From: Psammoneis japonica
Lineage: Eukaryota
Assembly (NCBI GenBank): GCA_008632985.1
Contig: QPGO01000104.1
Span: 248,001-292,320, forward strand
Reading direction: 5' to 3'
DNA length: 44,320 bases
Both the position numbers and the translations under genes were made by a program. The notes under the pieces are model-generated. The model was not told where the DNA came from and ran no database searches. It saw only the letters and a program-made list of their open reading frames with translations. Position 1 is the stretch's first letter, and every line of letters starts with the position of its first letter. Positions 7,972 to 27,706 of this stretch are shown here, one piece after another.

Positions 7972-9091
7972 GGTTAGCGCAACGGCGTGTTGTTGCGGTG
8001 TGTGTTTTGTGTTGCGTTTGTCACCGTTATCATTTTTGTACGTATGAATGCATTGATGGCAGATACGGCAGCATGTACCGGTACAGTAAAACAATAAACG
8101 TCACACCGTCTGTCTGTCCTTCCTTCCCAGTTTGTGCACCTGCCTTGGGGCGGCATTTGATTTGACTCTCGGGCCACATTCAGTCACTCCAACGTGACAA
8201 GGAAACCCCAGCAACCTGCACTGCACCCCTGTGGGGAAAGGGAAATGGACCAATCTTCAGAAATGTCATGGAGGAACTTCCCCACAAGTCTGTCTCGTTT
8301 CATGCCACCACACATGACCCCTTGGTTGTGAGATCTGCCAGACTGCATTCTTCCGAACGAGTGTGTCCAGCGAGCAAGTGTCAAGACAAATGCTGCCATT
8401 GCAGTCTTTGGGGCAATCATCAGTGGAGTCAATGGCATCAACAGACTTGTCTTGGGCAACATGGGGCTGTGAAGGTGATGCAATTGGGGGGGCCTGTTCC
8501 AGCTCCAGGTGATCCGCATGGGTTCGATTCCCACCATTTGGCAATTTGTGCATTTGGTGCATTGAGCTTTTTCAAAATCCATTTTTTGCCAAAAAGAAGG
8601 GCAAGTGTGCACTTTACATGTGTTTTCAGGTGTGCACTTGCCTTTCGATTTTTGAAACGATCAAAATTGAAGGAGTTCAATGTGCCAAAATCGGCCTCTT
8701 GCGTGATGAAAAGCGGATCACCCAGAGCTGGAACAGGCCTTGGACACACAGTTGCAAGGAAAAATTTCCATGGAGGCTGTGCAAGGCCACGCAAATTCCC
8801 CAGTGTTGACTCCAGAAAAAAAAAAAAAAGTGAGCAAAAATTGATGTGGTGAAATTGCCGCAAAATGATCACAAGAAAGAGACAAAGTGTTTTTGACGTG
8901 ACTTGGTTCGCTCAACACACAGCATGTGCTCATGATCTCACCGCTGTTCACACTGCCACCAAAATGTGTCATGCCCTCAAACAACATGAACATTGGAAAT
9001 GTTGCTGAGTGCAAATGAAGAAAGAGTCAAAGTCTGGACACAAAAAAACAGCACCACAATGTTGGTGGGCAACAACCAGATGAAGGACAAG

Positions 9092-9369
9092 TGACAGAAA
9101 TTGAAGGCAAATGGCAAGAATTCAAACAATGACTCCTTGCTGCTGTCTGAACAGCAGATGAGTCTCCGCTCAGAGACCGTTGCAGGAGCCGAAAGACGTG
9201 CAAGTCAGTGTGATCGGGCCACTGTTGTCATTCTTGTGAGCCGCATGGCTCGAAAGCAAACTGCGTCGCGCACGCACGCGCGGAACTAAAGAGCACACAA
9301 AACTGTGTGCGGTGAACCAAACAGCGTGCGACATTTCGCGCGCACCCAAATCCTGTTCAAATCCTGTCA
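9092..9369 (-). repeat. 3' LTR of Copia element
   Basis: Aligns end to end with 12349-12626; TG...CA termini with 6-bp inverted ends. Confidence 0.92.
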
Positions 9370-9479
9370 CTCCCCAGTTTGCTTGAGGAGTCACAGAAAC
9401 AGATTCGACTTCGGATTGACCAAAGAACTTTGGAGTCAAAGCACCAAAACATGAAGAGACAAGAAAGGATCAAGATCTG

Positions 9480-9700
9480 AGAGCAACGTTGCATTCTCCA
9501 AGTGGGTCATCTTGAGATGAGCTGCGCCTCCCCAATTGCAGATGCCGTTGTGCTTTTCAAAGCTCAAGGCACACTTGGGATCTTGTGGGATTCCACATCC
9601 GCACTTGCAATGGAAGGAGCAAAGCTTGGTCTGGTTGACAATGTTGAACGGCAGGGCAACATCGCAGGACAATGCAAACAAGTTGACATCACCTTCACTT
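9480..9700 (-). pseudogene. Copia pol remnant (integrase-RT linker)
   Basis: IVNQTKLCSFH..CKCGCGIPQDPKCALSFEKHNGICNW resembles the diatom Copia linker as I recall it (VNQAKLRSF..YKYGYEIP..Y.HA..D..NGN..W), with Tyr read as Cys. Confidence 0.65.
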
Positions 9701-9929
9701 CCTGAGCGAAGGTCGTAAAGACTGATGGCCGTCTGTTGGTTCTTGGAATGGTTGCCACACTGGGCTGCTGCTAGAAAAACAGAGCAGTGCTCGTGCAGGG
9801 TGGCATGGCGTTTGCACGACTCGGGGAACAGAGCAAGCATGAGTTCAAAGGCACAAGCGGTGGTCTTGTGTTCCACCAATCCGATTGCAAGCTCAGCTGC
9901 ATCTCCTGAGAGACTGATCCAATTGGAGA

Positions 9930-10665
9930 AACGAGTCTCAAGGTGCAAGCCTTTGGGGATCGGATTGGAGCAAGACATCTTGTGGTGCAAGGCTGCAGAT
10001 GTCTGATTGGGGCAACCAGTCCCGTGCTGCAAGACTTCTGGGATCCACCAAAAGGACTTGCCATTCTTGTGACACGAGTCTTCGGGGATCCAATCAGGAG
10101 GCCAAGTCTTGAGGTGCAAGACTTGGGGGATCCAATCAGGAGGCCGAGTCTTGTGGTGCAAGACTTGAGGGATCCAATCTGGAGGCTGAGTCTTGAGGTA
10201 CGAGACGTGGAGGATCCAATTGGGAGGCCCGGTCTCGAGGCACGAGACATGGAGAGTCCAGTTGGGAGGCCTGGTCTCAAGGCACGAGACTTGGGGCATC
10301 CGATCAGGAGGCCCAGTCTCGATGTGTGAGACTTGAGGCATCCGATCAGGAGGCCCAGTCTCGAGGTGCGAGACTTGGGGGATCCAACCAGGAGGCCCAG
10401 TCTCGAGGCACGAGACTTGAGGCATCCAATCAGGAGGCCCAGTCTCGTGGTGCGATGCTTGGAGGATCTGAAGACAACGAAGCTGCTTGGATGTCCTGAA
10501 CTCCAGTCAGGAGGCCTGGTCTCAAGGTGCGAGACTTGGGGCATCCAGTCAGGAGGCCTGGTCTCAAGGTGCGAGACTTGGGGCATCCAATCAGGAGGCC
10601 TCGTCTCATGGTGCGATGCTTGGAGGATCCGAAGACAACGAAGCTGCTTGGATTTCCTGAACTCC
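9930..10665. repeat. 42-bp tandem repeat (about 15 units) inside the Copia element, with a duplicated ~55-bp interruption
   Basis: GATCCAATCAGGAGGCC recurs every 42 bp (e.g. 10087, 10129); minus-strand reading repeats 14 aa (CLETGPPDWIPQVS). GGTGCGATGCTTGGAGGATC...GAACTCC occurs at about 10449 and 10610. Confidence 0.9.
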
Positions 10666-10761
10666 CCATCTGATGAACCGGTTGAACTGTTGTGAACAGA
10701 TTCAATGACGGGAAAAGGAGGCTCCCCATCAGGAGATGCGAGAAGCAAGTTGTCATCTCCA

Positions 10762-11412
10762 TCACTTCCCAAATGAAGACTGTGAAGGGTGACAGCAGTC
10801 GACACGTGGAGGTTGGCAGCACGTGGTTTGCGGGGTGCAAAGACTGCAGCTTTGGAAGCCATGGGTGGAGTGTCCCAACTGGTCCTGCACTGGGCCGAGG
10901 TTGCTTGCAGGCGGGTTGGTCAAGACATGTGGGGCGCGACTGACACCACTTCTGGGGGACACCTGAGTGGTGGCACAGTGCAAGGCTGGTGTCAAAATGG
11001 CACTGGGTTCACCTGGTTTGGATGGCAAGGGACTCAGCACAGGTGCGGAGGGTGCTGTGCCAGTGGCTAGAGAGGTCAAGCAGTCCGGACCAAGGCGGCA
11101 GTTGCGAAATTCGTCGGGTGTGAGCAACTGGGGTTCATTGGTCACATCATCACCGTTGCAAACTTTGACAAAGCAGAAGCTGATCAAAGCTGCCAGGAGG
11201 TTTCTGTGGGTCCGTGGCAAAGGCACTGCATTGGCGCCGTCTCTGTGAGTGAGGGCGTCAATTTGGGTGGGTGAGAACATGAACAACTCCTCACACGATT
11301 CAATCCCATTGATGGACAGGGCAGAACGAAGAGGGCTGTCATCGTCTTGATTGAGCACAGTGCCTGGAATGCATTTGAAGCTTTCGGTTTGTTGCTGTCG
11401 TGTGAGAACCAT
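10762..11412 (-). pseudogene. Copia gag N-terminal remnant
   Basis: MVLTRQQQ..F..VLNQDDDSPLRSAL..GI..LTPDEF..RLGP resembles diatom Copia gag starts; lies just downstream of the 5' LTR and leader on the minus strand. Confidence 0.7.
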
Positions 11413-12348
11413 GACGGAGGACGGTGCAGTAGAAACAAAAGACAGGAGCCAATCTAGAGCGCGATCTTGACTCGGAGTTTTGACTTGGAACTTGGCTTGA
11501 AAAAGACTTGACTTGAAATCTTGAACCATCTTAAAATCAGAAGTTGCCGGGCTGTGGCATCCCGTTCGTTGTCAAGTGCCAAACTTCCCATCCGGTCCGT
11601 GGAGTTGTGCCGGCACGTCCGAACCCACAGCCAGCGGCACTTTGGGTTGCTTGCGAGCGGAGCAGCGGGTTGTAAACCCCTGCAGGCAAGCTGACCAGAG
11701 GTGGACAAGACCCCCGAACCGTTCTCATTTTGCATCGTTTGGATTTCCCGATCAGGCTGGCCAGTTGACACAGGCGTCAGGCGCTGTGGACGAACGAACA
11801 AACGCGGGAAAACACCCTTTGCCCCAACGCAGGCTGCAATCATGGCTGCTTGCTCTCACAGTCTTCCTCGTGGACCCAGTGGAATTGCAGAGCACCAGCA
11901 GTCCGGGGCAGATCAGGTGCAACAGACTCGGCGTGCTTGTAGAGTGGCAGCAAAGCCGCAGTCCAAAGAGTGGGTTCAAGTCCCAGGCCGTGAAGACATG
12001 TGTGCACATGTCTTCAGCGACGAAGATCCTTGAATGTGCAGGGTTCTTGACCGTTAACCATTGAATGGGTGTGTGAAGGGATGAGGATCAAGGACAGACT
12101 TGGATGCAACCGTTGAATGCATGTCTACAGTGAAAAAGGCAGTGTGATCAATCCAGACATCCAGCGGCAAGGAGACTTGATGGTGACATTAAATTCCTGC
12201 CGATGCCTGGTGTTGAATGCAACACAGACTTGCCGATGTGTGTAGAACACACACGGAGGTCCACGCAGAATTGAGGTGGCGTCATCGGCAAATCAACGAC
12301 AACAATGGCGGTTGCTCAATGGGTTGACAATGAGCAAGACTGTCAATC

Positions 12349-12626
12349 TGACAGAAATTGAAGGCAAATGGCAAGAATTCAAACAACAACTCCTTGCTGC
12401 TGTCCAAACAGCAGATGAGTTTCCACTCAGAGACCATCGCAGGAGCTGAAAGACGTGCAAGTCGGTGCAATTGGGCTGCTGTTGTTGTTCTTGTGAGCCG
12501 TGTGGCTCGAAAGCAAACTGCATCGCGCGCGTGCGCGCGGAGCCAAAGAGCACACAAAACTGTGCGCGGTGAACTAAACAGCGCGCGACATTTCGCGTGC
12601 ACCCAAATCCTGTTCAAATCCTGTCA
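12349..12626 (-). repeat. 5' LTR of Copia element
   Basis: Matches 9092-9369. Confidence 0.92.
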
Positions 12627-12983
12627 ACAAATGTGGACACATGCAAACAAATGAAAAAGGTGAGATCCCAATGAGCGGCCATGTTGTTCAATCAGCAAGG
12701 GGTTCACCCAACAAATGAAGATGTTCACGCAATGGGCCGGCTCAGTGCAGGGGACAATGACCTGTGATTCATGGTGCCACCTTTTTTGCCCCTCGTCAGT
12801 GTGCAAGCGCACATGGTGACATGCAGCAGGCTGCCTTTGATGTTGATGGGGATGATGTGGCCATCAATGATGGTGATCTGTTGCAGGCCATTGGAAGCCT
12901 CAATCAACCAGTCATTGACATCATGCTTGCACTGCTTGAGCTGGCTGCAAGTGCAACACACAGCCACCAATGAGAGTTGGTGT

Positions 12984-13400
12984 ATCACGGTTGACGTGTC
13001 ACAGCCTTTAAATGTCACAAAGGGCGTGACAAAAATGACCTTTTGTCTGCATGCATGCTGCACTGTGAATTCACAGCGGAGTGGTTCATCGCAACCATTG
13101 GGCAGGAGGCCAGGGGTTCGAAACCCTGAGTGGGAGTTGTCTGCAGCAACGTTGATCACTGTCGAATGCACAAAACTCTGTGCAGTTCTGCATGTTCCTT
13201 CGTACGCACCCACACTGTTCCACCAAAACCGTGCAGTGTCAGCACACGTCAGCAAAGAGCCGCATGGACGCGTGGCACATGGGGAGGAGTGCAACACACA
13301 GCCACTGACAAGAGCCAATGCATCACGGCGACGTGTTGCAGCCTTTAAATGTCACAAAGGGCGTGACAAAAACAACCTTTTGTCTGCATGCATGCTGCAC
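12984..13400. repeat. Two copies of an ~80-bp direct repeat (about 12984-13063 and 13322-13400)
   Basis: Shared CAGCCTTTAAATGTCACAAAGGGCGTGACAAAAA..CCTTTTGTCTGCATGCATGCTGCAC. Confidence 0.85.
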
Positions 13401-13604
13401 AAGAGCACATGGATTTGCCCTTTCCAGCGCAGGCAAGCTGGCAACAAATGGCAATGACAGGTCCGTGTTGCATGTGAGTGACACTGTCAGCAGTGGCAAC
13501 AGGAGCATCAATGAGCTGGTGGCTGTCGATGCCTTGCATGTCAACCTGTCAATCACCATGATCCGCTGGAGCACCATCATGGCTGACACTCTGCATCCTT
13601 CATG

Positions 13605-13665
13605 ACTTTGTGCCCTTTCCCATTTTGTGCCCTCAGCCATTTTGTGCTCTTTGTGGTTTTGTGTC
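13605..13665. repeat. Short degenerate patch of the 17-bp TTTTGYRCCC satellite
   Basis: TTTGTGCCCTTTCCCATTTTGTGCCCTCAGCCATTTTGTGCTCTTTGTG; same units as the arrays at 33 kb and 40 kb. Confidence 0.7.
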
Positions 13666-13841
13666 CTTGTTGTGTTCAAGCCCCAGGGTGATGCACAAAA
13701 CAACGATCAATTTTGAGTGCAAATTGTGCATCTCTTGTACACAGAGCATTTGCACAATTGCAAAACACTCAAGTGGATGTGCTTTTGCTAGTGTGCAGAG
13801 CATGAACATTTGGTTGTTTTTTTGTTGGCATCACAGGAAAC

Positions 13842-15393
13842 GAGAACAACCCAACCTGCCAAATGTTGGGGGGCACTTTGGTCAGAAATGCTCTGGCATG
13901 ATTGGAGAGTGGTTTTCTCCCCCAAGACGTGCCATCCTGGGTGTCTGCATGTTGGGGGTGCTGCATGTTGGGTGAGCTCAATTTCTGCTCCCCCAACATG
14001 TCACCCCACAGCAGCACCTCCTTTCCCACCATGTCAGCATGACTTTTCCACTCAACAGTGTTTCATCATCATTGTTCTTCTTGCCCCAAGTTCCTCGTGA
14101 TGTCACCTCATGGTCACAGATGTCCACATCACCGATGACGTGTCCTTCTCACATTGTCACCATGGCGGTGATGTTGGCCTGAGCAGCCTTCATCCTTTTT
14201 TTGTCAACACACACTCATCATTGGCTGTTGTCAGTCAGACATTTCCTTTCAAGCTGCAGACCCTGTGTCACTCTCCTGCGGTTTGTGTGGCAGTTGTCAC
14301 AACTGATTTGCTTGAATGCCCTCATTGCCATCAAATTGCTCTTCAAATCTCATTTGACAAGTGCCCATGCAAATGGGCGGTGACCCTCCAGTGCCCTTCA
14401 TGCAGTGCCTGCTGGGATGTTGTTCGCAAAGATTGTCCTCAGTGCAAAGACCGCATTCTCAGTTTTTCGGAAGCCAGCTGCCATGACCAATGATGCAGAT
14501 TTTTATTCTGTGGCCATCCCTGACAAAATGATGTCACCACTTTTGCAGCAGATGATTCTGTCATGTCTGCGTGCCTTTTTGGTGCAGACCTGCCTTTGAC
14601 CAACATGTTTGAAGAAGCCGACCAGTTTGCCGCCCCTCCAGATGTTTCCACAGATTTGGCCAATCTGTCCCACGCCAAAATCACTGATCAGTTGCTCTCT
14701 GTTGATGCACTTGTTCTGATCCTTTTTTTGCCTCCAACAATTGGGCAGCAAAAAATGTCACCTGCTTGCCAAGAAATTGTTTGACAATGCACAATTTGCA
14801 GAAAAAGTGTCAGACAAGGACGCTGACATTCACTTGTTGCTGGGCAAGTCAGTGTTGTCCCTGTCCCCTGTCTGAGCCACAGCAGCACATGTTGCTGGAC
14901 TTGTTCAGACGGTTGGTTGGAACCCACCTTGCTGGCAGGGGAAGGAAACAAGAGCCTGGATCACTTTTGGTTTGTTCTGCCCACAACACCCACACATGTT
15001 TGCAACACATGTTTGGAAGGGTTGCATTTGCTTGAGAAGATGGTGCCCTTGGTGCCAGTGCAAACACTCGGCTCTGGCGAAAACACAAACTCCCGCTGCA
15101 GTGTGATTGACTTGTTGTGCAACTTTTTAGCATTTGGAGCTGGCCTGGAAAATCTGTGTGAAGCCGCTGACGAAAATGGTTTGTTTCAAGAAAATCAGCT
15201 GGTTTTCCATGCAAGACAGTGTTGTTGGGTTAAGGAAATTTATGACGCCTCCATTTCAATTTGGAACAATGATGAACAAACTGATTGTTCATTGCTTTTC
15301 ACAGCTTTTGAAACCTTTTCTGATGATTTTGGCCCTGCCGCGCGAGCCTTGCATAACATCCAATGTCAATGGCACTTGGGCTTGCCACATTGG
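13842..15393. repeat. Duplicated segment A, copy 1 (about 1.55 kb; other copy 27707-29291)
   Basis: Collinear match from CAACCCAACCTGCCAAATGTTGGGGG to GTCAATGGCACTTGGGCTTGCCA..TTGGGTTT, with small indels. Confidence 0.92.
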
Positions 15394-16144
15394 GTTTCTT
15401 TGCCAACCACATCATGTGGACCTTTGTTCCCTGATGACTCAAGTGTGACCACAACCAACATTGGCGAGTTCAGCAACTGCTTTCTCATTGTGCTTGGGCC
15501 CAAAGGTGCAAATCATGACCCGGTTGTGTCTGAGGTTGAAAGGGAAATTCACCTTCTCCAATCTGGGCAGGTGCCACCCATTTTTGTTGGCAGCGCTGGC
15601 AAATCAAGGAAACCCATCACAGACGTCTGGTTGTGATCTGGAGACCAGCCAGAAAAACAAGCAATCACTGGAATGAAACTTGGCATGAAAACCAACCATG
15701 CATTGTTCGGCCATGTGTTGAACATCAAGAAAGTTGGTTGTTGTCTTGCGTCTTGCGTCTTGCACTCACTGTCGCAAACGCATTGAAGAACCCTCATCAA
15801 TGGCTTTCAAACAATTGCAAACTTGACATGTTCATTTGGATTGTGTGCCAACCAGTCTGTTGATGCTTCCAGTCCATTGCTGCACACCCCCCCTCCTGCC
15901 AACTTTCCACTCAGCAAACTTGGCGGCAAATCGTTCTCCCTCCTTTCAAATGGAATCAAACAGCAACTGTGCAGTCATTGGTTTTGCACGGGAATCATGT
16001 GGAATGTACGAGCTGAATGGTCATTGTGACTTTTTGTCATGCAGAAGCCACGTGAAATCACAGCACACCATTTCACTGGTGGTGCATGAATGATGACCGA
16101 AAAAACCAGTCACGCGACACACTTGCCGTGTCATGAGAATCAGC

Positions 16145-16329
16145 TGAATGAGACAGGCACATGTGCTCTGTGTCCAAGTGTGCCCTCTCTGACACATGTG
16201 TGTCAACTGATGCACTGGACATTCAAGAAGCCGTTGGGAGTCAGTTCCAATCAGCGATTGTGCTGATCAGGTCTCTTCTCGGTTCTCTCACAACCTGTTT
16301 TATCAAGTCATCCCAAGCTGGATCTTGCA
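16145..16329 (+). repeat. 5' LTR of gypsy element
   Basis: Aligns without gaps to 21948-22132; ends GATCTTGCA. Confidence 0.92.
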
Positions 16330-16634
16330 CTGCAATTGCAGTCATTGTCACAGCTTGCTTGTTGCATCATCTGTTTCATGACAATGTGTGGAGTGCTGTC
16401 GAAAAGAGAGAAAGCTTGTTTGCGTGCTTGTGCAGAAAATTTCATTAGAAATCAATTGGAGCCTCAGCGCAATCATGCTGGTGAAATTGGCGATTCAGAG
16501 CAGCGTTTGTTTGAACTTGAAGCTCGTGTCACTGCGCTTGAATTTGTCATTGTTTGGTTGTTGATTGTTCTCATTGTGTGGATCAATTGGGAATGCATTG
16601 TTTCATTTGCTGTGTGGATTGTTGATTCTTTGAT

Positions 16635-17855
16635 CGCTGAAATTGTTCATCATCATGTGTCAAGAAGCCTTGAAGAAAGCGTGCATTGAGTGTAAAACCA
16701 CATTCTTGGACTCGGAATTGCCTGAAGTGAAACTCACTCAAACTTTCGACAGTGGAACTAAACTGTCAGAGATGTGTCCCATTTTTACAGGAGAACATAG
16801 AATTGAGTCATTGTTGCATGTGGAGGACCGTTTCTGGAAGGCAGCAAGACAGTTGGATCATGACACCGGAACAGAACTCTTCGATGCTTTTGAGGATTGC
16901 TTGCAAGGCACTGCGGAGGCAAAATGGCAGAACATCATGGCAGGCATTCCACAGAATCAAAGGATGCAGCTCGGTTCAATCAGCCATCACAGATTGCTGC
17001 CAGTGCTGTGTGAAGCCGACAGCTTGTGATGCGATGAAGATGCACTTGCCTGCTTGCAAGAAACCTTGCTCCGTGGAATCTGCAACACATGTTGATCGCG
17101 TGGAAACTTCATTTCGCTGTGCCAACCATTTGCCTGGAACCGTCCCTGAACTCACAGAGCAGGAACAGAAAAACATTGTCTTCTGCACCTTTCCTTTGAC
17201 ATGGCAGCAGCCCCACATTCGTGCGGGCAAGAATCTTGTTGCAGATTCAAAGGCGGACATTCAAGCCTGCATGAGCAATGAGAAGGTGTTTGCCGATTGT
17301 CAAGATGACAAGAGATGCAAGTCCAATGATGGCAATGGAGGGAACTCCAGCAACAAAAAGGGCAACCATGACAAGAAGGATGCTGAGGGTCAACCCCAGG
17401 CTGGTGATCCGTGTCCGGTCCCATGGCACAATGGAAGACATGCATGGGGCCAGTGTTGTGATGATCCAAATGACCCCAATTGTCGTGGACCTCACTTCCA
17501 AGGAGGCCATGGTCCTGGCCGTGGTGGAGGTGGATGCTTTGGCGGTTGTGGTGACCAAAACCAAGGAGGTCGCAGCACCTGTTGTGACAATTGCAACAAC
17601 AATGACAATGGGAATCAAAATGACAATGGCAACCAAGGTGGTGGTGGTCAACATTGTTGCAATGACAACAACAATCGTGGTGGCCAAGGTCAGGCCTGCT
17701 GCTGTGCTGCTCAAGCAGACAACATGAATTTCAGCCAGGCTCGAGAAGCTCCTCGTGGTGAGATGCACCATTTCAATGTGATTGGACAAGGTCCTCCACG
17801 TTCCGGAGGTGTGGTGAGGTTTCAGCCAGATGGGCAGTTTCCTTGGCAGTTCTGA
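16635..17855 (+). pseudogene. Gypsy gag (frameshifted near 16975)
   Basis: Two overlapping ORFs (16643-17029, 16752-17855) with ELFDAFEDCLQGTAEAKW, LTEQEQKNIVF..FP..WQ, a knuckle-like CPVPWHNGRHAWGQC and a G/N-rich tail; lies between the LTR and the protease. Confidence 0.8.
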
Positions 17856-17879
17856 GAAGAAGGAGCTGAATGCTCCCAA

Positions 17880-20800
17880 TTGCCTGCATGTGAAGCATTT
17901 GTTGAAGATGATTGTGCTGTGCCTGAAAATTTGCCTGAAAGTTTTGCCTTTGATTGTTTTGAAAATCCCAACGAACTGTTGCCTGTCAAATTTGAAGACA
18001 CTGCAGAAAATTGCATGAATGAAGAGGGGGACGTGTTTGATCAAGATGCATTTGAGCACAATGTTCCTCTCCCCAAAATGGGTTTGCAAGTCTCGCGTGC
18101 CATGTTGGTCCCATCAACTCTGTCAGTTGCCAAATTGACCCAACGGCATGAGTCGAATCGCATGATGCATGTGCCATTTGATTCTGGTGGATCTCACACT
18201 GTGATCTCTTCTCAAGTTTTGCCTCATGGAGCTGCGCCATCCATTGATGGGCAAGGAGCACAAGCTTTCCAAACCATTGCAGGTCCTTTCCAGTCGGGTC
18301 ATTGGGTGGCTCTAAGTGACATTGCACTGCCCGAATTCAACAAGACCAGAAGAGTTGACGGTTGTGTGGCTCATGTGTTTGATGCTCCGTGTGCGCATGA
18401 TGTCATTTTGGGTCAAGATTTCCCAGACAAAATTGGACTCCATTTGAACCATGACACAAGAACGCTGCGTTGGTTGGACCGCATCATTCCAATGAAGGAG
18501 CCTCATCATTGGTCCAAGTCCTGCAACTGGTGTGTTGCACTGGACCAAATGGATGAATTCGATGAAGATTGCAAGGACGAATGGAGCTGCGGATGTGACG
18601 ATGGACATGATGGCCACATGTTGGATGCCAAGCATGAAGCAACAGATCCTGCGGAAGTGGTCCGCAACCTGGATCACCTGATGGAAGAACAAAAGAAGAA
18701 ACTGTTGGCGGTGTTGGAAAAATGCTCAACCTTGTTTGACGGAACTTTGGGTCACTGTCCTCATGAAAAGGTGCACCTGGAGGTGGAAGAAAATGCTGTG
18801 CCCTGTCACTCAAAACCTTTTCCTGTTGCTCGTGTCAACGAGGAAGACGCGTTCAGGTCCAGGTGGGACCTTGCGCTGCTGAACTGTGACATCAACAGTT
18901 TTTTGAATCACGTCGTATGTTGCGCACGTAGATTTCTACGTGATTTTTTCGATGTTTTGTGTCATTTTACGGTGCACTCATTGAGCAATCCGTCCAACAA
19001 CTTTTGACATTTTTTGTTGCAGTGCAATTCTGTGGTGTCCTAAGAATCGTGCAGGGCAGGCGCATTTGCAAAAGCATCAAGTGGCAAGAGGCACAATTTC
19101 ACCACAAACTTGGCCGTTTGTTTGATGTTGAAGACAAACACATCCATTGGTTAAATTCTTGCACTGCGGAGCTCGCATGCAGAATTCTGTGGGCCCAATG
19201 TCACACGGAGTTCCACCTGGGACTGGAACCCATTGGAAGCATTTAAAAAGGAACTGAAGCATTTGGTGGACCTGGGAGTGTTGCGACCATGTGGACCTGC
19301 GGAATGGGCAGCTGGTGCCTTCATTGCTCCAAAGAAGGACGGCCAAGTGCATTGGGCATCTGATTTCCGTGAACTGAATGAGGCACTCAAGCAAAAAAGT
19401 CCACCCTTTTCCGGTTGTCCAAGATGCACTGCAGCGGAGAGCGGGGCACAAGTTCTTCACCAAACTCAACCTTGCTGTGTTCTGCTGCAACTTGGAATTG
19501 GACGATGAAAGCAAGGAGCTGGCAACAATTGCAACCCCGCACGGAAAGTTCCAATGCTGTCGCATGGCCATGGGATTGAAGCCAGCTCCAGATGTTGCTC
19601 AGTCTGTCATTGAAAAGATTTTGCATGGTTTGGACGTTGAAACTTGTGTTGATGACATTGGCGCCTTTGACGCTGACTTTGGCTGCCATCTCTCTCATCT
19701 TGACAAAGTGTTGCATCATCTGGAAGAGAATGGATTGAAGGTGAACCCATTGAAATGCAAGTGGTGTGTCCAAGAGATGGATTTCTGGGGCATTGGCTCA
19801 CTCCAACTGGTGTCAAACCATGGAAGAAAAAGGTCAAAGCGATTCTGCGAATGCAACCTCCACGGAACACCACGCAACTTCGCTCCTTTTTGGGTGCAGT
19901 GACCTGTTGTCGCAACATGTGGCCTCGTCGTTCTCACTTGCTTGCGCCTTCAATGGAATTGACAGGCAAAAGCCAGCTCCATTGGTCAGCGGCATGTCAG
20001 AAAGCATTTGAAGAAATGAAGGCAGTGATCACAGCGGAAGCTCTCCTGGCCCATCCAACCACAACCTGCTGTCCATGTGTGTGCCGATGCATCAGACTGT
20101 CAGATGGGTGCAGCCATTGTCCAAGATGGCAAACCTGTGGCGCACTGGTCCAAGAAGCTCTCAGCAGCTCAATGCAACTGTTCAACGATGGAAAAAGAAC
20201 TCCTGGTGGTCATCATGTGCTTCAAAGAATTTTGCACGATGTTGCTCGGTGCTGACATTGCTGTTCATGCTGACCATGAAATCTCACCTTTGCACTTTGA
20301 ATGCACAGCGCGTCCTTCGTTGGCATCCATTCCTTGAAGATTTCGTGCCCACCTTTGAACACATTGAAGGCAAGAACAACATGCTGGCCAATTGTTTTTC
20401 TCGACTCCCACGCATGGATCCACCTTCGGAGGGGAAGAGCCTTGGGCCAAGCAGCAAATGCAAAGGAAAAATCATTCATTTTGAAAAGTTGGGCAGCAGT
20501 GAATTGAGCAAGGCTGAGGAAGAAGAAGATTTGGAGTTGGGCACTTGCAGGTTCAAGTTTTGCCATGCTCCTGTCAATCCTTCTGATGAGTCTCATGCTT
20601 TGTCTTCTCTGCTTGATGAACCTGAATTGTTTGAATGCTCTTTGGACTGTCCGACATTGGACGAGATGCCAAATCCCACCGAGATGTTGCGGACACAACA
20701 GCTCCAGTTTGAGGACCAGCAACTGATCAACAGAGACAACAGAACCCACAGCAATTCGTGGTCAAGATTGTGAACCAGCGTCCTCTCATGTGTTGTCGTT

Positions 20801-21830
20801 TGCATTTGAATGATCTGCCTGGAGCATGGAAAATTTGCACTCCGACTGCATTGTTGCCTGATGTGCTCATGTGGTGTCATCGTGTGTTGGGCCATTGTGG
20901 AGTTGTTTGTTTCTACGAGAGCATTCGCACTCACATGCATCACCCTGCATTGCTTGGCATTGTAATGAGCTTGCATGCGACGCCTGTCAACATTTCAAAC
21001 AACTCGGTCCAGGACATGGAGAATTGCCTGAACGCCAAGCACCATCAGCTCCGTGGTCGGAAGCAGCAGTTGACCTTGTTGGACCGTGGAAAATGCCGAT
21101 TCAAGATCAAGAAATTGAACTCAGCACCCATGCTTGCATTGATGCTGTTGCTGGCCTGACTGAACTCACACATGTTGACAACAAAACTTCTCAACATGTT
21201 GCCAACAAGTTCCGCAACCTTTGGTTGGCTCGTTGTCCCAGACCAAATCGATGTGTCCATGACAACGGCAGTGAATTCATTGGTTGGGAATTTCAAATGC
21301 CATTGAACCAGGCTGGTGTTGAAGATGCTCCGACGACCTCATGGAATCCCACAGCCAACTCGATTTGTGAATGAATGCACCAAACGGCAGCTGACATTTT
21401 GCGAACTGTGGTTGCTGCCAACCCACCTTTGAACATTCAACAGGCCAAGCAGATGGTGGATGATGCCCTTGCTGCAGCCTCCTTTGCATTGCAATGCTCT
21501 CACTCAAGGTCCATGGGTGTGTCCAGTGGAGCGTTGGCATTCCAACAAGACATGATTTTGGATCCACCTGTTCTCTCCGATCTTGCTGCTGTTTGAGCCA
21601 ACCGTCAAGTGCTTGTCAACAAAAACCTGCAACGACAAAACGCAAAATGCCATTCTTGTGATTGTTCAGTGGGACAAGATGTGTCAATCAAGTCCGTGGA
21701 TCCAGCGAAGCCAGAAGCTAGAGCTCATGGTCTGTTTCGAATTGTGCAAGTCCATGCCAATGGGACAGTTTCGGCACTGTGAGCACCACACATCATTGAG
21801 CGGATTGATGTTTGTTGCGTGGTGCCGCGC
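17880..21830 (+). pseudogene. Gypsy pol (protease-RT-RNase H-integrase), frameshifted and interrupted by an insertion
   Basis: FDSGGSHT, DVILGQDF, FIAPKKDGQVHWASDFRELN, RMAMGLKPAPD, CVDD (YxDD position), [56 protein letters not shown]. Confidence 0.95.
18847..19234. mobile_element. 388-bp MITE-like insertion in gypsy pol
   Basis: Flanked by direct repeat GGAAG (18842-18846, 19235-19239). Imperfect TIRs: GTTCAGGTCCAGGTGGGAC versus the reverse complement of the right end, GTTCCAGTCCCAGGTGGAAC. Removal restores PFPVARVNEEAFKKELKHL. Confidence 0.9.
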
Positions 21831-21947
21831 CGGAGTTGAGGGTTTCTTCCCAACGTCTGGGTTCCCTTCTCCATGTGCATTGGAGTTTAAATTTGAGTCA
21901 AGTGGTTCCAATGGTGCACATGATTCTTGCACCATTGAGGGGAAGAG

Positions 21948-22132
21948 CAAATGAGATGGGCACATGTGCTCTGTGTCCGAGTGTGCCCTCTCTGATGCGT
22001 GCATGTCAACCAACACATGAGATGTTCAAGAAGCAGTTAGAAGTTAGCTCCGATCAGTGACTGTGCTGATCGGGTCTCTTCTCAGTTCTCTCACAACCTG
22101 TTTTGTCAAGTCATCCCAAGCCAGATCTTGCA
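21948..22132 (+). repeat. 3' LTR of gypsy element
   Basis: Follows the PPT; matches 16145-16329. Confidence 0.92.
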
Positions 22133-23249: not shown

Positions 23250-25800
23250 GCCTGAGCAGTTGGCCTTGTCTTTGATGCTCGTTGAGTTTGTTGAGAAACG
23301 AGCATGTGTCCCAGATCAAATCCATCCAGCACAACTTGCAACAAACCAAACACGACATGTGGTGGTGAATGACATTTTAGAAGTGCAGCTGCACCAAGTG
23401 ACGAGCGGCCTGTGTTGCACAGTGCTTTTGATGATCCAATTTGTTCTGATGCTTCCAACATTTGGAACCTTGGAGTGTGGCATCAAGCAAGATGCAACCA
23501 TGAACTCCTTGCATTTGCTCACCCTTGGATGATTCTACAGCCAGACAAACCAAGCTGCAGCAATGCAAACAATGCTGACATTCCATTTGCAAAACTCACC
23601 ACAGTCGCAACTGGCAGTTGGTCCAGCAAAAACTTCAGTGCTTGCTCCTCATCGTCATCCACTCCAGCCACCCCGGAAGAGGTGCGCTTCTTGGTGGCAC
23701 GTTCAGGAGAACCTTGTCCGTGGGGGGCATGCCATTGGCCGAAAACATCAATTTGCTCTTCACTCAACGTTTGCACATTGAACGAGGGCACGCAGCAAAG
23801 TTCATGTTTTGAGACAGTGCACTGCAAAAAGTTCCCACTTTGCATGATGACAGAGAGTTGCCAAGTCAAAAGTAAAGCAGAGTGCGTCAGAGCCAACATT
23901 CCATCTACCTGCCGTCGATCTTGTGCAGCATCATCATTTGTCATGTCGATGAAGGTGTGAAGGCATCACTGCAAATGGTCATTTCTTCATCAATTTGTTT
24001 CAGTGGCTGACATGTCACTGCCTTTTGATGTGTCTTGTTGTGTTTGATTTGTTTTTGATGATTTGTTGAGCTGCTGAGATGTTGTTGTTGAGCAGGTCGC
24101 AGGGGAACGATGTTTCGCCATTGTCGAGATGCACAAATGACACAAAGAAGCACGCACCAAGGCAACCAAAAACGGAGCAGTCCAACTGGTCAAGTCTTTG
24201 CGAGCACCCAAATTTGTGTGTCACTCAGTCTTTGATGAGATTTGTGTTGGAGTTCTTTCTGTGGCAAGTTGGAGCTGTGGATTCCGGTGATTTCAGGTGG
24301 CTGCCGTGTGATTGCTTGACAGACCTGCAAATTTCTCCAAACTGCCAAAAATGAAATGCACACAAATGTCCATCAGAGCCAGTGGACCACAGCGGAAGGC
24401 ACAAAGCTTGTCTTGGTGATTGTTGCAGTGTGAACACACAAGTCATTTCTGGCATTTTGAAAAATGCCAACAACTGCAATCAGCTGAAAGTGTTGCAAGA
24501 CAAACCCGATCAAAATCCAGAATTGCCAGAAGCGCTTTTGCTTGATCGTGAACATCATCCTTGGAAATGCCGCATGTGTCAATTGCCTCCCATTTGGCTC
24601 AGCGGGGCACCTCCTGACCAGTGGCAGGAGGCACCAATGCATGGACTTGGCAACACTGCAAAGGCCATGATGCATTTGATGGAGAAAGGTTTGGCTTGTT
24701 GCTCACATGGGTGATGGGAGCAGATTGCAGAGTCCTTGCAGATGAACCAGGCATGACACTGTTGTGAAACACTGAGACTTCCTTGGCTGAATGTGCACCC
24801 ATTCACAAAGGGCAGTTTTGCTGGGTTTGAATGCAAAAATTGGATTGCGCTTGGACATTTGTTTAAATTCTTTGCCAACTTGTTTCTTGAAACACCGGAT
24901 GGCCCACCTGTGGTGTTTCTGCCTGTCAACAAACAAGCAAGTTGGACCATGCTGTTCAACAAGGCAGGGCTAAAAATGTGTGGATTGCCAATCAACAGCA
25001 GTGCCAAAGAACTGCATGAATGTGTCGCGGTTCACATGGATGTGACAGACCCTCCAGGCACACTGCCATCTGCTGAGCTGCAGGTGTCGGACGTTGTTAA
25101 AATGCTCAATTCTGCCTCAAACATGTGTGCGCATGCCCTGGCAGGATTCAGCTCAGATGCTTTGGAGCTGCATCTCAGGTTTTGCATCACGCAATTTCTC
25201 AATGACACGGATGCTCTGGATCTGCCAATGTGACAAAACCGTGGCAAAGACAGCAAAGATCTGGCCCCAATCTGGCATGAACGACATGCTGTTCTTGGCA
25301 TGTTGTCTTTTCCTGACAACATGCATGACAAAGGACCAGTGCGAGTGCATTGGGAAGGGGAAGACAAAAAGGTGCTGAAACAGAACAAAAGAGAATTCCA
25401 TTCATGCAGCAAAAATTTTGCTCAAAACATGCACAGCGGGTTCAATGTCGCTGCTGCAATGGACCGTGTGACTTCAACCAGTGAGAAGCACAAATCTTTG
25501 GACTCTGATGCCTTGTTGCAAGAGTTTCAGATTAAAAAAGAGATGCCAGATCTGCACATGTGCAAGACATGGCAGCATCTTCTTTCTCTTGTTGATGGAA
25601 AAGATGACAAAGAACCAACAGTTCTTGTGCAGTTAGAAGAGGGCAAGACTGGAGCTGCAGTGGAGCCCAACCGTCTGCTTCACATCCAGCTTGTGTGCAA
25701 GGAAACATTTGGTTGCAAGGATTGTTTTGCTGCCACAATCACCAGTGAAGAGTCATCCAACAGACTCCAACAGACGTCTGTTGCAAATGAATCAGATTGA
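23250..25800 (+). pseudogene. Degenerate DNA transposase, Plavaka/CACTA(EnSpm)-like
   Basis: Consecutive plus-strand fragments with LPPIW..EAPMHGLGNTAK (D.MH.L..G-like), GSFAGFECKNWIALG and LSFPDNMHDKGPVRVHWEG (GP.R.YWEG-like). Family assignment is from recalled motifs; boundaries approximate. Confidence 0.55.
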
Positions 25801-25837
25801 AGCCATTTTGGCAGGCTTCTGCAGGAAAACACGGATG

Positions 25838-27200
25838 GATCAATTTGCTGGGGATTCGTTGACTCCGAGTGCAGAGACCTGTGCCAAGATTTGGTTCTAA
25901 GATGGGCAACCCTTGCAACTGACATTTAGATCTCCATCACCTTGTGCTTGCTCAATCTTCTGCGGACTGGCTTGGGCAAATTGAGCTGGTGCATCGTCAC
26001 AATTTTCATTGACAAATCATTGGTCATGCAGGCTGCTTCTTCTGGCCGGTTGGCCAAACACCAATTCCAGCAATCAAGATTTGTCACAGACACAGCATGT
26101 GAATGATTGGAGTCAAAAATTCAACCATTGCACACAGTCACGCAGCAGTTGTTTGACACACAAGGTGAGCTTCTTGCACAGCAAATCTTCCGCTGTGATG
26201 CTGACATCTCTGGTGCAGTCTGTCTTCCTGCCATTGTAAACTTCATCAGACCATCAACCAGAGGATGCTCCTTTTGCAATCAACCTTCCATCAGAGACAC
26301 CGCAAACCACATCCGTCAGTCACCATGAGCAGCTGATGTTGCAGAAGCCTCAATTTGACAGCTGACATGACGCATCATGCACTTGTCTTGCAAGTGATGC
26401 AGCACATTGGCCAATGAAGAAAAAATGCACGTGTCGTTGTTGCCTTGCAAAAAGCAAACCTTGGGACCAAAGGTGGGGAGCAAGATTTCCTCTGGCTTTG
26501 ACAACGCCAATCCTTCAGGCATTTCACAAGTCACACCTGGCTTCAATGCCATCATGGCCTTGCACACACTTGGGTGGCAACACCCAAAGTTGCACTTGGC
26601 CAACCAACCAGAACAATGCTTTTGCTCATCACCTGCAGCTGTCCATGCAAAGAATTTTGGGTGCTTGTTGCCCGCATCTTCTGTGCTGTCTGCCAAGCCC
26701 TCCGCAAAATGCTGTTTTGCCTTGTCCTTCTGCAGGGCTTGCACTTTGCAAATCAGGTCTGTTTTGATCTGCTGTTCAGCCCTTCATTGTGTGATTTTCC
26801 TCAACTTCTTGTTGAGCTTCTGTGGCCTGTTGGGCTTCTCCTTTGCCTTTTTAACTGGACACCACAGCTTGTCCATGTTGGCTGTTCCCACATCATTGCT
26901 TTCTTTAAAATGGTCTTTGATCTGTGCTCCGCCATTTTCTTGTTCTTTGCACCAACCAAACAAATGAGGCATGTCACATTCCAGCAAATATCCATGGGAC
27001 GTTTGGGCACTTCTGCACTCCTGTTTTTGGGTGCTGTCCATTCCATGCAGCGCACTTTGGAAATTTTGATCACATCATCGCACTCCACTTTGGCGCGGTG
27101 ACGTGCACATCTGTGCCCTCTTTTGGACAGACTTGGTGTTCAGGAGCCTTGCACAACAACCCTTTGACGTTGTCTTTTCCTGTTGTCCTTTTCAAAAATT
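25838..27200 (-). pseudogene. Duplicated segment B, copy 1: degenerate ORF ending in a putative Cys-peptidase-like domain
   Basis: Collinear with 29298-30623. Minus-strand LLPTFGPKVCFLQGNNDTCIFSSLANVLHHL followed downstream by IFDSNH. Confidence 0.6.
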
Positions 27201-27706
27201 CTTCCTCCCTGTCCGCACAACTCGCTGCATCTCTGTGGTCACTCATCAAAGAACCCATGGCAGCATGAGTTTGCCTGGCAAGGTTTTGACATTGCACGTG
27301 ACAGATCGCTCTTTGTTCTTGGCACTGGTGCAGACAGCAGGCAGATTTGCACCAACAAGCACATGGTTCATCTCAGCAATGAAAAACTTTTGTTGATCCA
27401 AACCTTGAGCCTCTTTTGAGAGATCACGGTTGCTTTGAACCACCCTCAACAATGTGCTGCACAGCTTGTGTGACATTTTGTTCTTGCATTTTGGTGGGTG
27501 CATCTGTGCAACATGGTCGAAGTGTGTCGTCATCACCTCTTTAAACAACCATTTCCCCGCGTGCGGAAGCTCTCCAGCGTTGTCATCCATTGTCCCTTCT
27601 TTGGCAATGCACCGATTGGTGCAACCAACTGTCACCTGGGCCTCTGGGTTGTTGGCGTCAACGCTGGCAATGTCGTGGTTGTCCTTCAAATCAACACATG
27701 GGAAAT

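Follow-up and report, generated by a model that had tools for sequence, protein, structure and literature searches.

The window, a 44,320-nucleotide stretch of the diatom Psammoneis japonica (contig QPGO01000104.1), contains a TA-depleted repeat block in which the remaining TA steps depend on their flanking bases, as does the choice of product strand. Both strands are used evenly, AA is spared and the boundary with the neighbouring genes is sharp. The reading we favour, to which we assign a probability of roughly 0.6, is that the block is silenced transposon and repeat DNA altered by a DNA-level process that converts A:T to G:C at TpA, treats the two strands independently, prefers 5'-TAY-3' and is likely a deaminase. 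The reading of neighbouring bases by the mutating process would provide a concrete fingerprint toward finding the enzyme.

Composition and content of the TA-depleted block

The first part of the window (1–8095) is a gene flank of normal composition that served as an internal control, with a rho(TA) of 0.45–0.66 and a rho(CG) of 0.76–1.19. It carries an MFS transporter (1–1455, + strand), a MYND-finger ORF (1644–2633, +) and a metallophosphoesterase (5032–5934, +), all with Pfam matches, together with an ORF without a family (6619–8094, –). The final normally spaced TA lies at 8095 and the following TA at 8615, placing the start of the TA-depleted, CpG-poor and TG/CA-rich block at 8096. From there it reaches the window end at 44320, its real end being beyond view, with values per kb of 0.00–0.14 for rho(TA), against 0.45–0.66 in positions 1–8000, 0.22–0.67 for rho(CG) and 1.42–1.99 for rho(TG/CA). 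The original prediction concerned positions 8600–26000; the TA-poor block extends past this range to the end of the window.

Within the block, a dead Ty3/gypsy-type LTR retrotransposon (16147–22132, +) retains LTR remnants at 16147–16329 and 21950–22132 (84% identity, with transitions making up 28 of 30 differences) and a frameshifted pol remnant at 17955–21833, the span covered by tblastn of P0001, whose ORF pieces match Asp_protease_2, RVT_1 and rve (Pfam). Compared with the homolog consensus, the pol remnant holds one Tyr versus 38, 52 Cys versus 22 and 59 His versus 32. Self-comparison by blastn identified repeat copies, all on the + strand, at 13836–15397 (85% identity to 27701–29292, the differences being mostly transitions in TA/CG-derived columns), 25833–27201 (85% to 29293–30623) and 37187–38365 (92% to 41718–42901). 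A 278-bp direct repeat (9092–9369, +) is 90% identical to its partner at 12349–12626, and all 29 differences are transitions. Two unstranded tandem arrays, masked for control counts, have a 42-bp unit (9930–10670; unit variants GTGC and GCAC, and a single GTAC at 10199) and a 17-bp unit (32970–33475, with the same family again at 39920–40800 and 13600–13660).

Context of the remaining TA steps

It had been predicted from a hand tally that about half or more of the surviving TAs, against an expected quarter, stand in YTAR context, and the full counts agree. Between 8600 and 26000, 38 of 70 TAs (54%; binomial p = 1.6e-7 against 0.25) are YTAR, made up of 17 TTAA, 8 CTAA, 7 TTAG and 6 CTAG, with 26 in mixed contexts (YTAY or RTAR) and 6 in RTAY. 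For the whole block (8096–44320) the classes are 62 YTAR (56%), 41 mixed and 7 RTAY among 110 TAs, of which three pairs are shared paralog columns, leaving approximately 107 independent sites; the YTAR share exceeds both 0.25 (p = 2.6e-12) and the 0.30 expected to first order given how often NT and AN occur in the block itself (p = 1e-8). Two baselines were used, both imperfect in that the flank consists of 8.1 kb of genic DNA and the transposon relatives, 78 intact, non-depleted gypsy loci from metagenomes, belong to other organisms. The 326 TAs of the flank comprise 63 YTAR (19%), 171 mixed and 92 RTAY (chi-square against the block, p = 7e-14), and the 17737 TAs of the relatives comprise 3723 YTAR (21.0%), 50.0% mixed and 29.1% RTAY (p = 1e-19). 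A YTAR share above 37% was found in none of the 68 relatives having at least 100 TAs. Normalised NTAN counts are not flat. The same bias is present from 26001 to the end of the window (24 of 40 TAs), in nine of nine 4-kb blocks, and in isolated and clustered TAs alike (54–62%), and a Y..R flank bias is absent for every other dinucleotide in the block (0.17–0.31).

In a Poisson model, each strand contributes one weight, determined by the base 3' of its A, and the two weights are multiplied to give the survival of a TA. The model accounts for all ten symmetric NTAN classes with a residual deviance of 1.7–2.2 (6 df), compared with a null of 76–96 (9 df). Relative to A, per-strand survival is 0.63–0.81 for G, 0.30–0.38 for C and 0.15–0.17 for T across three baselines, and TAT is erased no less well than TAC. 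Among survivors the +2 base appears to count as much as +1, with A protective (weights A 1, C 0.40, G 0.39, T 0.15). Protection fades with distance, A being found at 57% of +2 and 39% of +3 positions versus 26%, and TTTAAA is not depleted, at 0.25 per kb in the block versus 0.12 per kb in the flank. Of the TAY contexts, TACG ranks with the better survivors, with a half-site ratio of 0.8–1.2 versus 0.15–0.19 for TACC and TACT, and TACA likewise persists far better than those two. The +2 effect with its protective A and the sparing of TTTAAA appear to be new here.

Strand of the product and origin of the remaining TAs

The prediction extended to a mutator preferring 5'-TAY-3'. TAY and RTA make mirrored predictions of what becomes of a TA step, so that a tally of survivors alone cannot separate them, and a preference for 5'-RTA-3' on the mutated strand, with a purine lying two positions upstream of its A, fits the survivor counts exactly as well. 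The products make this mirror motif very improbable. In gypsy pol, 29 positions had Tyr in at least 50% of at least six homologs, and after frame resolution 22 positions with TG, CA or TA were available. Tyr codons in YTAY, where RTA predicts His, gave nine Cys, one His and one retained Tyr, and those in RTAY gave three Cys and eight His (Cys:His, Fisher p = 0.0075). The 3:8 ratio in RTAY departs from the 50:50 expected by the model; the departure is not significant, but the model gives no reason for it. At codons with an A-first consensus (I, M, T, N, K), T|G versus C|A products number 22:19 before Y and 5:18 before R (p = 0.018); the T|G products track the 3' base, with no effect of the 5' base on which RTA depends (12:16 versus 15:21). 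For L/I/V codons, NCA:NTG is 9:25 after a 5' purine and 6:46 after a 5' pyrimidine, in the predicted direction (p = 0.088). Block-wide, the excess lies in YTGY and not in RTGR as RTA would have it, at 2441:1648 (1.48), whereas the flank has 339:292 (1.16) and the transposon relatives have 10599:11028 (0.96); masking of the tandem arrays leaves the ratio unchanged (2256:1532; Fisher versus flank, p = 0.007). Mixed-context paralog columns pairing TA with a product divide four as TAY predicts and one as RTA predicts.

With the flank taken as ancestor, mass balance gives gains per kb of 25.5 for YTGY, 18.4 for RTGY, 13.6 for YTGR and 9.5 for RTGR, and of the TAh lost, a fraction estimated at 0.72 with a pyrimidine at +1 and at 0.25 with a purine became TGh. 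Weights derived from the 98 survivors outside gypsy pol predicted 16 of 21 Tyr outcomes correctly (log-likelihood –11.68 versus –14.56 for 50:50), and adding +2 did not improve this prediction (–13.2 versus –11.68). The TAY preference is thus supported beyond the tally by three product-side tests, although as a motif it is incomplete, the +2 base counting too. Paralog columns with TG versus CA have no mixed-context deficit (37 of 72; of 83 such columns, approximately 32 may be CpG-derived), which is compatible only with a modest ratio of rates, near 3, and not with an absolute rule.

The original prediction took the remaining TAs to be ancestral. Conversely, most may be new, made after full erasure by dipyrimidine-biased C-to-T change of a UV-like or APOBEC-like kind (YCA to YTA or, from the other strand, TGR to TAR), in which case the YTAR bias would reflect the making of TA and not its destruction. 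The source counts of approximately 1822 for YCAR plus YTGR and 1667 for YCAY plus RTGR would yield around 52% YTAR, 48% mixed and 0% RTAY, near the observed 56/37/6, and background transitions of 3–5% per paralog column would create new TAs in numbers like those observed. From this background rate, new TAs could be a sizeable share of the 110, making 'survivor' partly a misnomer. As an account of the bias we nevertheless consider re-creation unlikely. The C/T background of the paralogs has no dipyrimidine bias (35/1072 after 5' Y versus 41/878 after 5' R), the Tyr, A-first and YTGY tests are independent of TA creation and yield the same rule, the strong enrichment of A at +2 is unpredicted, and seven RTAY sites are present. 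At least one TA, at 20914, is a conserved Tyr codon and three others match consensus residues. Across six paralog pairs, R[C/T]A columns number 4/438 against the background of 41/878 (p = 1.6e-4), which rejects context-blind creation and indicates that TA removal went on after the repeats had duplicated, and Y[C/T]A columns show no such deficit (10/335 versus 35/1072, p = 1). Newness could still hold site by site. Given the rate ratio of 2.9 derived from the products and the overall survival observed, a model of removal alone predicts YTAR, mixed and RTAY shares of 57/38/5% against the 56/37/6% seen; with the transposon baseline it over-predicts YTAR (67/30/3%).

Action on both DNA strands, likely chemistry and related systems

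Cys and His outcomes are interleaved inside one gypsy element, the symmetric classes are even (RTGY:RCAY 938:911; YTGR:YCAR 902:895), and strand heterogeneity was not found over 18 2-kb windows (p = 0.31 and 0.11). ADAR-like editing of retroelement RNA before reverse transcription, or Pol-eta-like error-prone synthesis at WA motifs as in the second phase of somatic hypermutation, would likewise turn A to G with T or A preferred before it. The equal effect on both strands of a single element disfavours editing of its RNA, and the change also covers the entire 36-kb block, including non-coding, non-transcribed tandem arrays that are likewise TA-depleted. AA sites, whose mutation Pol eta would predict, are not targeted, as rho(AA/TT) goes undepleted from 1.15 to 1.26 and rho(AG/CT) unenriched from 0.94 to 0.92, making Pol eta unlikely. 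ADAR prefers G on the 3' side, whereas here a 3' pyrimidine is preferred. The Discussion of a preprint on Bigelowiella, described below, cites ADAR's preference for U at –1, and even so both processes seem extremely unlikely sources. An artefact of assembly or base calling, caused by modified bases within heterochromatin, is about as remote. Contigs from a public run contain 0.60 of the sampled 31-mers of 6001–16000, albeit possibly from the same data set, and frameshifts and diverged paralogs are also present. Moreover, the product choice follows context per strand, as symmetric modification would not, and, according to that preprint, Illumina data from another alga revealed real TpA mutations of the same type.

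In the process we propose, the A:T of a TpA would become G:C, giving TG, or CA when the A of the other strand is targeted, with the two adenines of each step treated independently. An adenine would be targeted approximately three times faster when a pyrimidine follows on its own strand (T ≥ C > G > A), and more slowly, as judged from survivors, when A is the second downstream base. YTAR steps, being TA-purine on both strands, would persist, or outlast others once re-made by ordinary C-to-T change, and contexts joining a T-run to an A-run, such as TTTAAA, would be nearly immune. The chemistry may be enzymatic deamination of adenine in DNA to hypoxanthine, which pairs with C, although context-dependent lesion repair would produce an identical pattern. 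Targeting is presumably through repeat or heterochromatin marks, and cytosine methylation fits the CpG decay of the same block.

The flank rule might arise from base read-out by the enzyme or from the ease with which an adenine unstacks from its 3' neighbour. It is conceivable, if on balance doubtful, that the mutator needs TpA only and that the rule comes from the substrate, an adenine on a 3' purine, chiefly in an A-run, flipping out less readily; a repair version, with hypoxanthine cleared better in TA-purine contexts, is similarly doubtful. Base-stacking strength usually follows A > G > C > T, which the order of protection at +1 parallels, and protection reaches +2 and, more weakly, +3 and peaks where T-runs meet A-runs. 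The +2 weights, however, do not follow stacking strength cleanly, retention is far higher for TACA and TACG than for TACC and TACT, and the absolute need for T at –1 still demands sequence recognition. No result here separates substrate or repair from read-out by the enzyme.

A process of the kind we favour shares features with repeat-induced point mutation (RIP), whose dinucleotide-specific transitions inactivate repeats and mobile DNA across whole domains with sharp borders to unique genes and cytosine methylation (cf. PMC7296669). The direction is opposite and a different base is attacked, TpA being destroyed here and CpA/TpG created; in Neurospora and other ascomycetes RIP turns C into T, chiefly at CpA, so that TpA is created. 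TpA hypermutation as such is already known from one 2026 preprint on the rhizarian alga Bigelowiella natans (Mettrop et al., bioRxiv 10.64898/2026.01.13.699255), which describes TpA-restricted A:T-to-G:C hypermutation of foreign DNA, namely integrated giant-virus and virophage DNA, caught directly in mutation-accumulation lines. There, as here, change at TpA to TpG or CpA is near-exclusively A:T to G:C, only foreign or mobile DNA is affected, the spectrum of ordinary genes staying normal, long-term TpA loss with CpA and TpG gain forms clustered windows, and an adenine deaminase is proposed. In B. natans the insertions are viral, depletion is moderate (rho 0.45) and the process was observed directly, whereas the diatom block has retrotransposons and satellite arrays, near-total depletion (rho 0.00–0.14), joint CpG decay and a process deduced from sequence. 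The main text of the preprint, as far as seen, holds no analysis beyond the dinucleotide and no flank rule, and the TAY/+2 rule is apparently unpublished.

A TadA/ADAT-like specificity had also been suggested, and the details of this putative assignment match only partly. TadA and ADAT2-ADAT3 act on A34 following U33, so that U/T stands directly before the target adenine, and the natural TadA site is UACG; we know of no eukaryotic A34 tRNA with U35. The T at –1 and the +1 pyrimidine match this site, whereas TAT is no worse a target than TAC here and TACG is not favoured. Current adenine base editors are described as broadly context-tolerant for A, the evolved TadA variant ABE8e A48E is said to prefer YAC (review PMC13109818), and amphioxus ADAT2, the one ADAT2 for which deamination of adenine in DNA has been shown, acts in hairpin loops with a reported preference for GAA (PMC10354150), compared with TAY in the diatom block.

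Extent and contents of the TA-depleted block

Across positions 1–8095 of the window (the flank), which hold four ordinary ORFs of which Pfam identified three, as an MFS transporter, a MYND-finger protein and a metallophosphoesterase, the fourth having no family, per-segment counts gave normal dinucleotide values, with rho(TA) of 0.45–0.66 and rho(CG) of about 1. From 8096 to the window end (the block), TA occurs 0–10 times per kb, with rho(TA) of 0.00–0.14, rho(CG) of 0.22–0.67 and rho(TG/CA) of 1.4–2.0. Overall, rho(TA) falls from 0.58 in the flank to 0.05 in the block and rho(TG/CA) rises from 1.18 to 1.72. The border is sharp, TA spacing being normal up to 8095 with no further TA until 8615. 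The ORF without a Pfam family (6619–8094, minus strand, 491 aa) has its 5' end within a few bases of this border, and the mutated DNA ends exactly there. TA depletion is limited to mobile and repeat DNA, consisting of gypsy sequence, repeats and satellites, with TA normal in all four flank ORFs.

Within the block, a dead Ty3/gypsy element (16147–22132) retains protease, RT and integrase remnants recognized by Pfam, and its pol remnant (17955–21833) was aligned to intact homologs. The MYND finger and the MFS protein mark the DNA as eukaryotic, and a diatom-like origin is suggested by the one named homolog of the RT, from Cylindrotheca closterium, with 51% identity. The block also contains several paralogous segments of 84–92% identity and tandem arrays of 17-bp and 42-bp units. 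Because TAA and TAG have been lost, long ‘ORFs’ are found in all six frames of the block; when 123 segments free of stops (110 aa or longer) were analysed with Pfam, the gypsy element was the sole find, and no deaminase domain was detected by Pfam among window ORFs of at least 110 aa.

A segment inside the gypsy element at 18845–19236, located between the protease and RT matches and without protein homology, holds six of the element's TAs together with several CpGs and appears less mutated than its surroundings. It includes an 8-bp perfect palindrome with a 2-base spacer at approximately 18924–18943. A MITE-like insertion was considered as the source of this TA-richer patch and rejected, given that no convincing terminal inverted repeats were present. 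At 35779–35946 (plus strand), a short open frame with an endonuclease/exonuclease/phosphatase-like motif, as in non-LTR retrotransposons, is followed by broken frames and is probably a dead LINE-like element; the larger ORFs adjoining it gave no Pfam match. The 17-bp T-rich tandem repeats form one family occurring in three places (13600–13660, 32970–33475 and 39920–40800) with a consensus near ATTTTGCGCCCTTTGTG, and their units differ by GCG, GCA or GTG, that is, at CpG/TpG/CpA positions. Units of the 42-bp array (9930–10670) show GTGC, GCAC or, once, GTAC (10199) at the same place, which may be the pattern left by independent changes on either strand of an ancestral GTAC, a GCGC ancestor also being possible.

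Flanking bases of the surviving TA steps

Sites were classed as YTAR, which presents no TAY on either strand, as RTAY, which presents TAY on both, or as mixed (YTAY and RTAR). The original prediction, that TAs surviving between 8600 and 26000 are biased to YTAR, was confirmed by counting, with 38 of the 70 TAs in this range being YTAR (TTAA 17, CTAA 8, TTAG 7 and CTAG 6). The bias extends beyond it (24 of 40 TAs), giving 62 YTAR, 41 mixed and 7 RTAY among the 110 TAs of the whole block, and recurs in each 4-kb block and whether TAs stand alone or in clusters. Three baselines give 19–30% YTAR: the flank (63 of 326 TAs), the first-order expectation from the block's own composition (0.30), and 78 non-depleted gypsy loci from metagenomes (the TE baseline, 21.0% of 17737 TAs), where none of the 68 loci with at least 100 TAs exceeded 37%. 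The excess of YTAR in the block is real and strong (p = 1e-8 to 1e-19 across baselines), and no other dinucleotide in the block shows the same flank bias.

Survival was described by a Poisson model in which two weights, one per strand, are multiplied for each site, a strand's weight depending on the base 3' of its A (position +1). The model fits the ten strand-symmetric NTAN classes with a residual deviance of 1.7–2.2 on 6 df (null 76–96 on 9 df). Given that a product of weights fits all ten classes, the two strands behave independently. Normalization of the NTAN counts to baselines, proposed as a check on the bias, left them uneven, the weights by +1 base being A 1, G 0.63–0.81, C 0.30–0.38 and T 0.15–0.17 with any baseline. 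Contexts are therefore erased in the order TAT ≥ TAC > TAG > TAA.

As a description of the full motif, TAY proved correct for the pyrimidine at +1 and incomplete beyond it, since the +2 base counts as well among survivors. The base at +2 is A in 57% of the 220 half-sites (one strand's reading of a TA step, both strands included) versus 26% in both baselines, and the base at +3 is A in 39%. Inclusion of a +2 term improved the model by 2dLL = 93.3 on 3 df, with weights of A 1, C 0.40, G 0.39 and T 0.15. Among half-site ratios, TAAA and TAGA are enriched 2.4- to 4.1-fold and TACC, TACT, TATT, TATC and TAGG are reduced down to 0.15–0.36, while TTTAAA is as frequent in the block (9 in 36.2 kb) as in the flank (1 in 8.1 kb). 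On the evidence of the survivors, the motif extends to +2. Among products, a sixteen-context mass balance gave no +2 effect (Spearman −0.2, p = 0.47), a result confounded by overlapping hot dinucleotides; no +2 effect was found at codons beginning with A (2/27 versus 5/37, p = 0.69), and a +1+2 model was not better than the +1 model on the outcomes at Tyr codons. TACG and TACA together survive far better than TACC and TACT (33 versus 5 half-sites, from similar baselines), and a (methylated) CpG adjoining the TA may interfere with its erasure.

Product-side evidence and the age of the remaining TAs

The survivor tally is blind to the choice between the TAY rule, whereby the A of TpA is mutated when a pyrimidine follows, and RTA, the mirror model that places a purine two bases upstream of the A, since a given TA step is lost or kept identically under either model. 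What distinguishes them is the strand mutated at mixed sites, and the products were therefore examined. Nineteen homologs were aligned to the gypsy pol remnant by tblastn, and removal of positions with fewer than six homologs, followed by resolution of overlapping frames, reduced 1478 codons to 1178 and then to 1023 usable codons. Twenty-two Tyr-consensus positions now read TG, CA or TA, 21 of them as TGY or CAY; seven further positions, from the 29 present before frame resolution, were left out (Phe at four, Ile, Trp, and a Pro that is an overlapping-frame duplicate). Tyr codons in YTAY context became Cys (TGY) nine times and His (CAY) once, with Tyr kept once, and those in RTAY context became Cys three times and His eight times (Fisher p = 0.0075). 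Where RTA predicts His, in YTAY, Cys is seen, and TAY is therefore the right model. In the RTAY Tyr codons of pol (17955–21833), His, the product of antisense-strand change, outnumbers Cys 8:3 where the +1 rule predicts parity, a non-significant departure (p ~0.2).

The same strand choice is observed elsewhere. At codons with a consensus residue whose codon begins with A (I, M, T, N and K), where a preceding T and a G now in first place mark a sense-strand change, the ratio of T|G to C|A is 22:19 with a pyrimidine next and 5:18 with a purine next (p = 0.018), and the base before the T is without effect (12:16 versus 15:21). At L/I/V codons, NCA is commoner after a 5' purine (9:25 versus 6:46, p = 0.088), the direction predicted by TAY for the other strand. 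The ratio of YTGY to RTGR reaches 1.48 in the block, compared with 1.16 for the flank and 0.96 for the metagenome gypsy relatives, with masking of tandem arrays making no difference, and a ratio of 1.47 was reached by 2 of the 47 relatives of at least 3 kb. With the flank taken as ancestor, gains in the TG classes match the losses of TA and CG at an own-strand conversion of ~0.72 for TAY and 0.25 for TAR. In paralog columns where one copy has TA in mixed context, the partner carries the TAY-predicted product in four cases and the other product in one. When weights were derived from the 98 TAs lying outside pol and applied to the 21 Tyr outcomes, the log-likelihood was −11.68, versus −14.56 for a coin. 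Furthermore, a rate ratio of 2.9 combined with the observed overall survival predicts YTAR, mixed and RTAY fractions of 57/38/5%, close to the 56/37/6% seen; under the TE baseline the model fits less well, predicting 67/30/3%. Paralog columns pairing TG with CA showed no deficiency of mixed contexts (37/72), in a comparison that is underpowered when the rate ratio is close to 3 and into which CpG-derived columns enter as a confounder (~32/83 expected). TAY as the target is right, and the Tyr codons, the A-first codons and the YTGY excess bear it out independently of the survivors from which it had been proposed.

Mismatches between paralogs are transitions in 403 of 490 cases, ~290 of these falling in columns that pair TA, CG, TG and CA. 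Background C/T differences in neutral contexts affect 3.3% of columns after a 5' pyrimidine and 4.7% after a 5' purine, indicating ordinary mutation without dipyrimidine bias. At this background rate, and with CA and TG very abundant, new TAs must be arising in non-negligible numbers. Columns of the RCA/RTA type are five times below background (4/438 versus 41/878, p = 1.6e-4) and YCA/YTA columns are at background level (10/335 versus 35/1072). The RCA/RTA deficit implies that TAs with a pyrimidine after the A of the other strand were removed again, and that removal went on after the copies diverged. Creation of TAs without regard to context is ruled out by the same deficit, and dipyrimidine-biased creation finds no support in the background rates. 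The possibility that the sites counted as survivors are newly created was therefore rejected in its context-blind form, although the present TAs probably include both true survivors and sites that have been re-created. A conserved Tyr codon at 20914 keeps its TA, and the TAs at 18313, 19244 and 21719 agree with homolog consensus residues. The context rule of removal sets the bias for surviving and re-created TAs alike.

Nature of the process and related systems

Cys and His outcomes alternate along the one gypsy element, product classes symmetric between the strands are balanced (938:911 and 902:895), and no regional strand bias was found at 2-kb scale, 18 windows being homogeneous. The target of the process is DNA, with the two strands used equally. 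RNA editing of the element ahead of reverse transcription is excluded, given that both DNA strands are changed, with Cys and His alternating, and that satellite arrays are TA-depleted as well. Mutagenesis of the Pol eta type at WA would target AA as well as TA; AA was found to be spared, with rho(AA/TT) moving from 1.15 in the flank to 1.26 in the block, and AG/CT is not enriched (0.94 to 0.92), making such a process unlikely. The target adenine has T at −1, as TA alone is depleted, AA/TT is not reduced and CA is enriched. Not all of the gain in TG/CA comes from TA, because CpG decay also feeds these dinucleotides. Repeat-induced point mutation (RIP), which changes C to T at CpA in duplicated DNA and raises TpA, runs in the opposite direction and was rejected, TpA being almost absent and CpA/TpG in excess in the block.

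The TadA natural site is UACG, with C at +1 and G at +2. It resembles the block motif in the T at −1 and the pyrimidine at +1, a pyrimidine being the favoured +1 base for targeting in the block (survival of 0.15–0.17 for T versus 0.30–0.38 for C). It differs in that TAT is targeted no less than TAC and TACG is not favoured, the TACG half-site ratio being 0.8–1.2 versus 0.15–0.19 for TACC/TACT, a contrast confounded by CpG decay and possibly by methylation. One evolved TadA variant is described as preferring YAC (PMC13109818), to which the T at −1 and the pyrimidine at +1 conform. Among DNA adenines, amphioxus ADAT2 reportedly favours those in GAA and in hairpin loops (PMC10354150), unlike the TA-pyrimidine rule of the block. 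Taken together, the rule fits an enzyme needing T at −1 and mismatches ADAR, Pol eta and the amphioxus ADAT2 DNA motif. It may be a read-out by the enzyme, and may just as well depend on the ease with which the adenine unstacks, since the order of protective +1 bases, A > G > C > T, parallels base-stacking strength; context-dependent repair could also produce it.

TpA-restricted hypermutation has been described for integrated viral DNA in mutation-accumulation lines of Bigelowiella natans, in a preprint that infers adenine deamination and proposes an ADAT2-like enzyme, an idea in line with the TadA/ADAT-family deaminase of the original prediction, and whose main text contains no neighbouring-base analysis (bioRxiv 10.64898/2026.01.13.699255). 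As portrayed there, that process and the one in the block have in common the TpA dinucleotide, the A:T-to-G:C direction, restriction to foreign or mobile DNA and a long-term signature. In the block, the changes are likewise A-to-G after T or T-to-C before A, with TpA lost and TpG/CpA gained. A full-text literature search yielded no further account of TpA erasure in transposons and none from diatoms. The block adds another lineage, and another class of target, to a process with one earlier description, and supplies its first flank rule. A metagenome scan with a gypsy pol profile gave 78 loci, none TA-depleted (rho 0.47–1.18), and has little bearing on how widespread the process is, as its peptide patterns favour intact copies.

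The most far-reaching interpretation compatible with the data, with a probability of about one in three, is that diatoms, and perhaps SAR-clade algae, possess a genome defence in which a DNA adenine deaminase is directed at silenced mobile DNA. Its motif would be T, the target A, a pyrimidine and then a non-A base, with a footprint of ~3 bases downstream on each strand that leaves TAs at T-run/A-run junctions immune. For the process itself, the simplest chemistry would be deamination of adenine, the resulting hypoxanthine pairing with C. Chromatin state might direct the mutator to its target, as suggested by the abrupt border, the repetitive nature of the block and the CpG decay that accompanies TA loss; in Phaeodactylum, H3K9 and H3K27 methylation has been reported on TEs (PMC4504042).

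If this deaminase reading is true, Bigelowiella de novo mutations should follow the same rule, tying both lineages to one enzyme, the motif would let that enzyme be recognized biochemically, and a natural double-strand-competent, TA-specific A-to-G editor would be of interest to base editing. In chemical terms, a mutator that removes TpA from mobile DNA mirrors fungal RIP in reverse, and one preprint, from 2026, is the sole report of such a mutator to date. The flank rule (TAT ≥ TAC > TAG > TAA, protection by A at +2, and immunity of TTTAAA) would serve as the enzyme's first biochemical fingerprint, checkable against the published Bigelowiella mutations and narrowing the candidate enzymes. For annotators, it states which residual TAs to expect in hypermutated transposons, and the two-strand multiplicative model offers a simple means to date or grade hypermutated regions.

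CpG decay in the block is also context-dependent, a strand's survival weight, set by the base preceding the C, being 0.75 for T, 1 for A, 1.21 for G and 1.26 for C. Relative to flank density, TCGA stands at 0.25, compared with 0.83 for GCGC (null deviance of 93, 9 df). Both amphioxus ADAT2 and TadA-derived editors are reported to deaminate C at TCG, and one enzyme for both TA and CpG decay is conceivable; ordinary 5-methyl-C decay is the simpler reading of the CpG loss. Three intact gypsy relatives from metagenomes (L059, L048 and L049) have CpG rho of 0.12–0.29 with normal TA, and CpG decay and TA erasure are therefore separate in other hosts.
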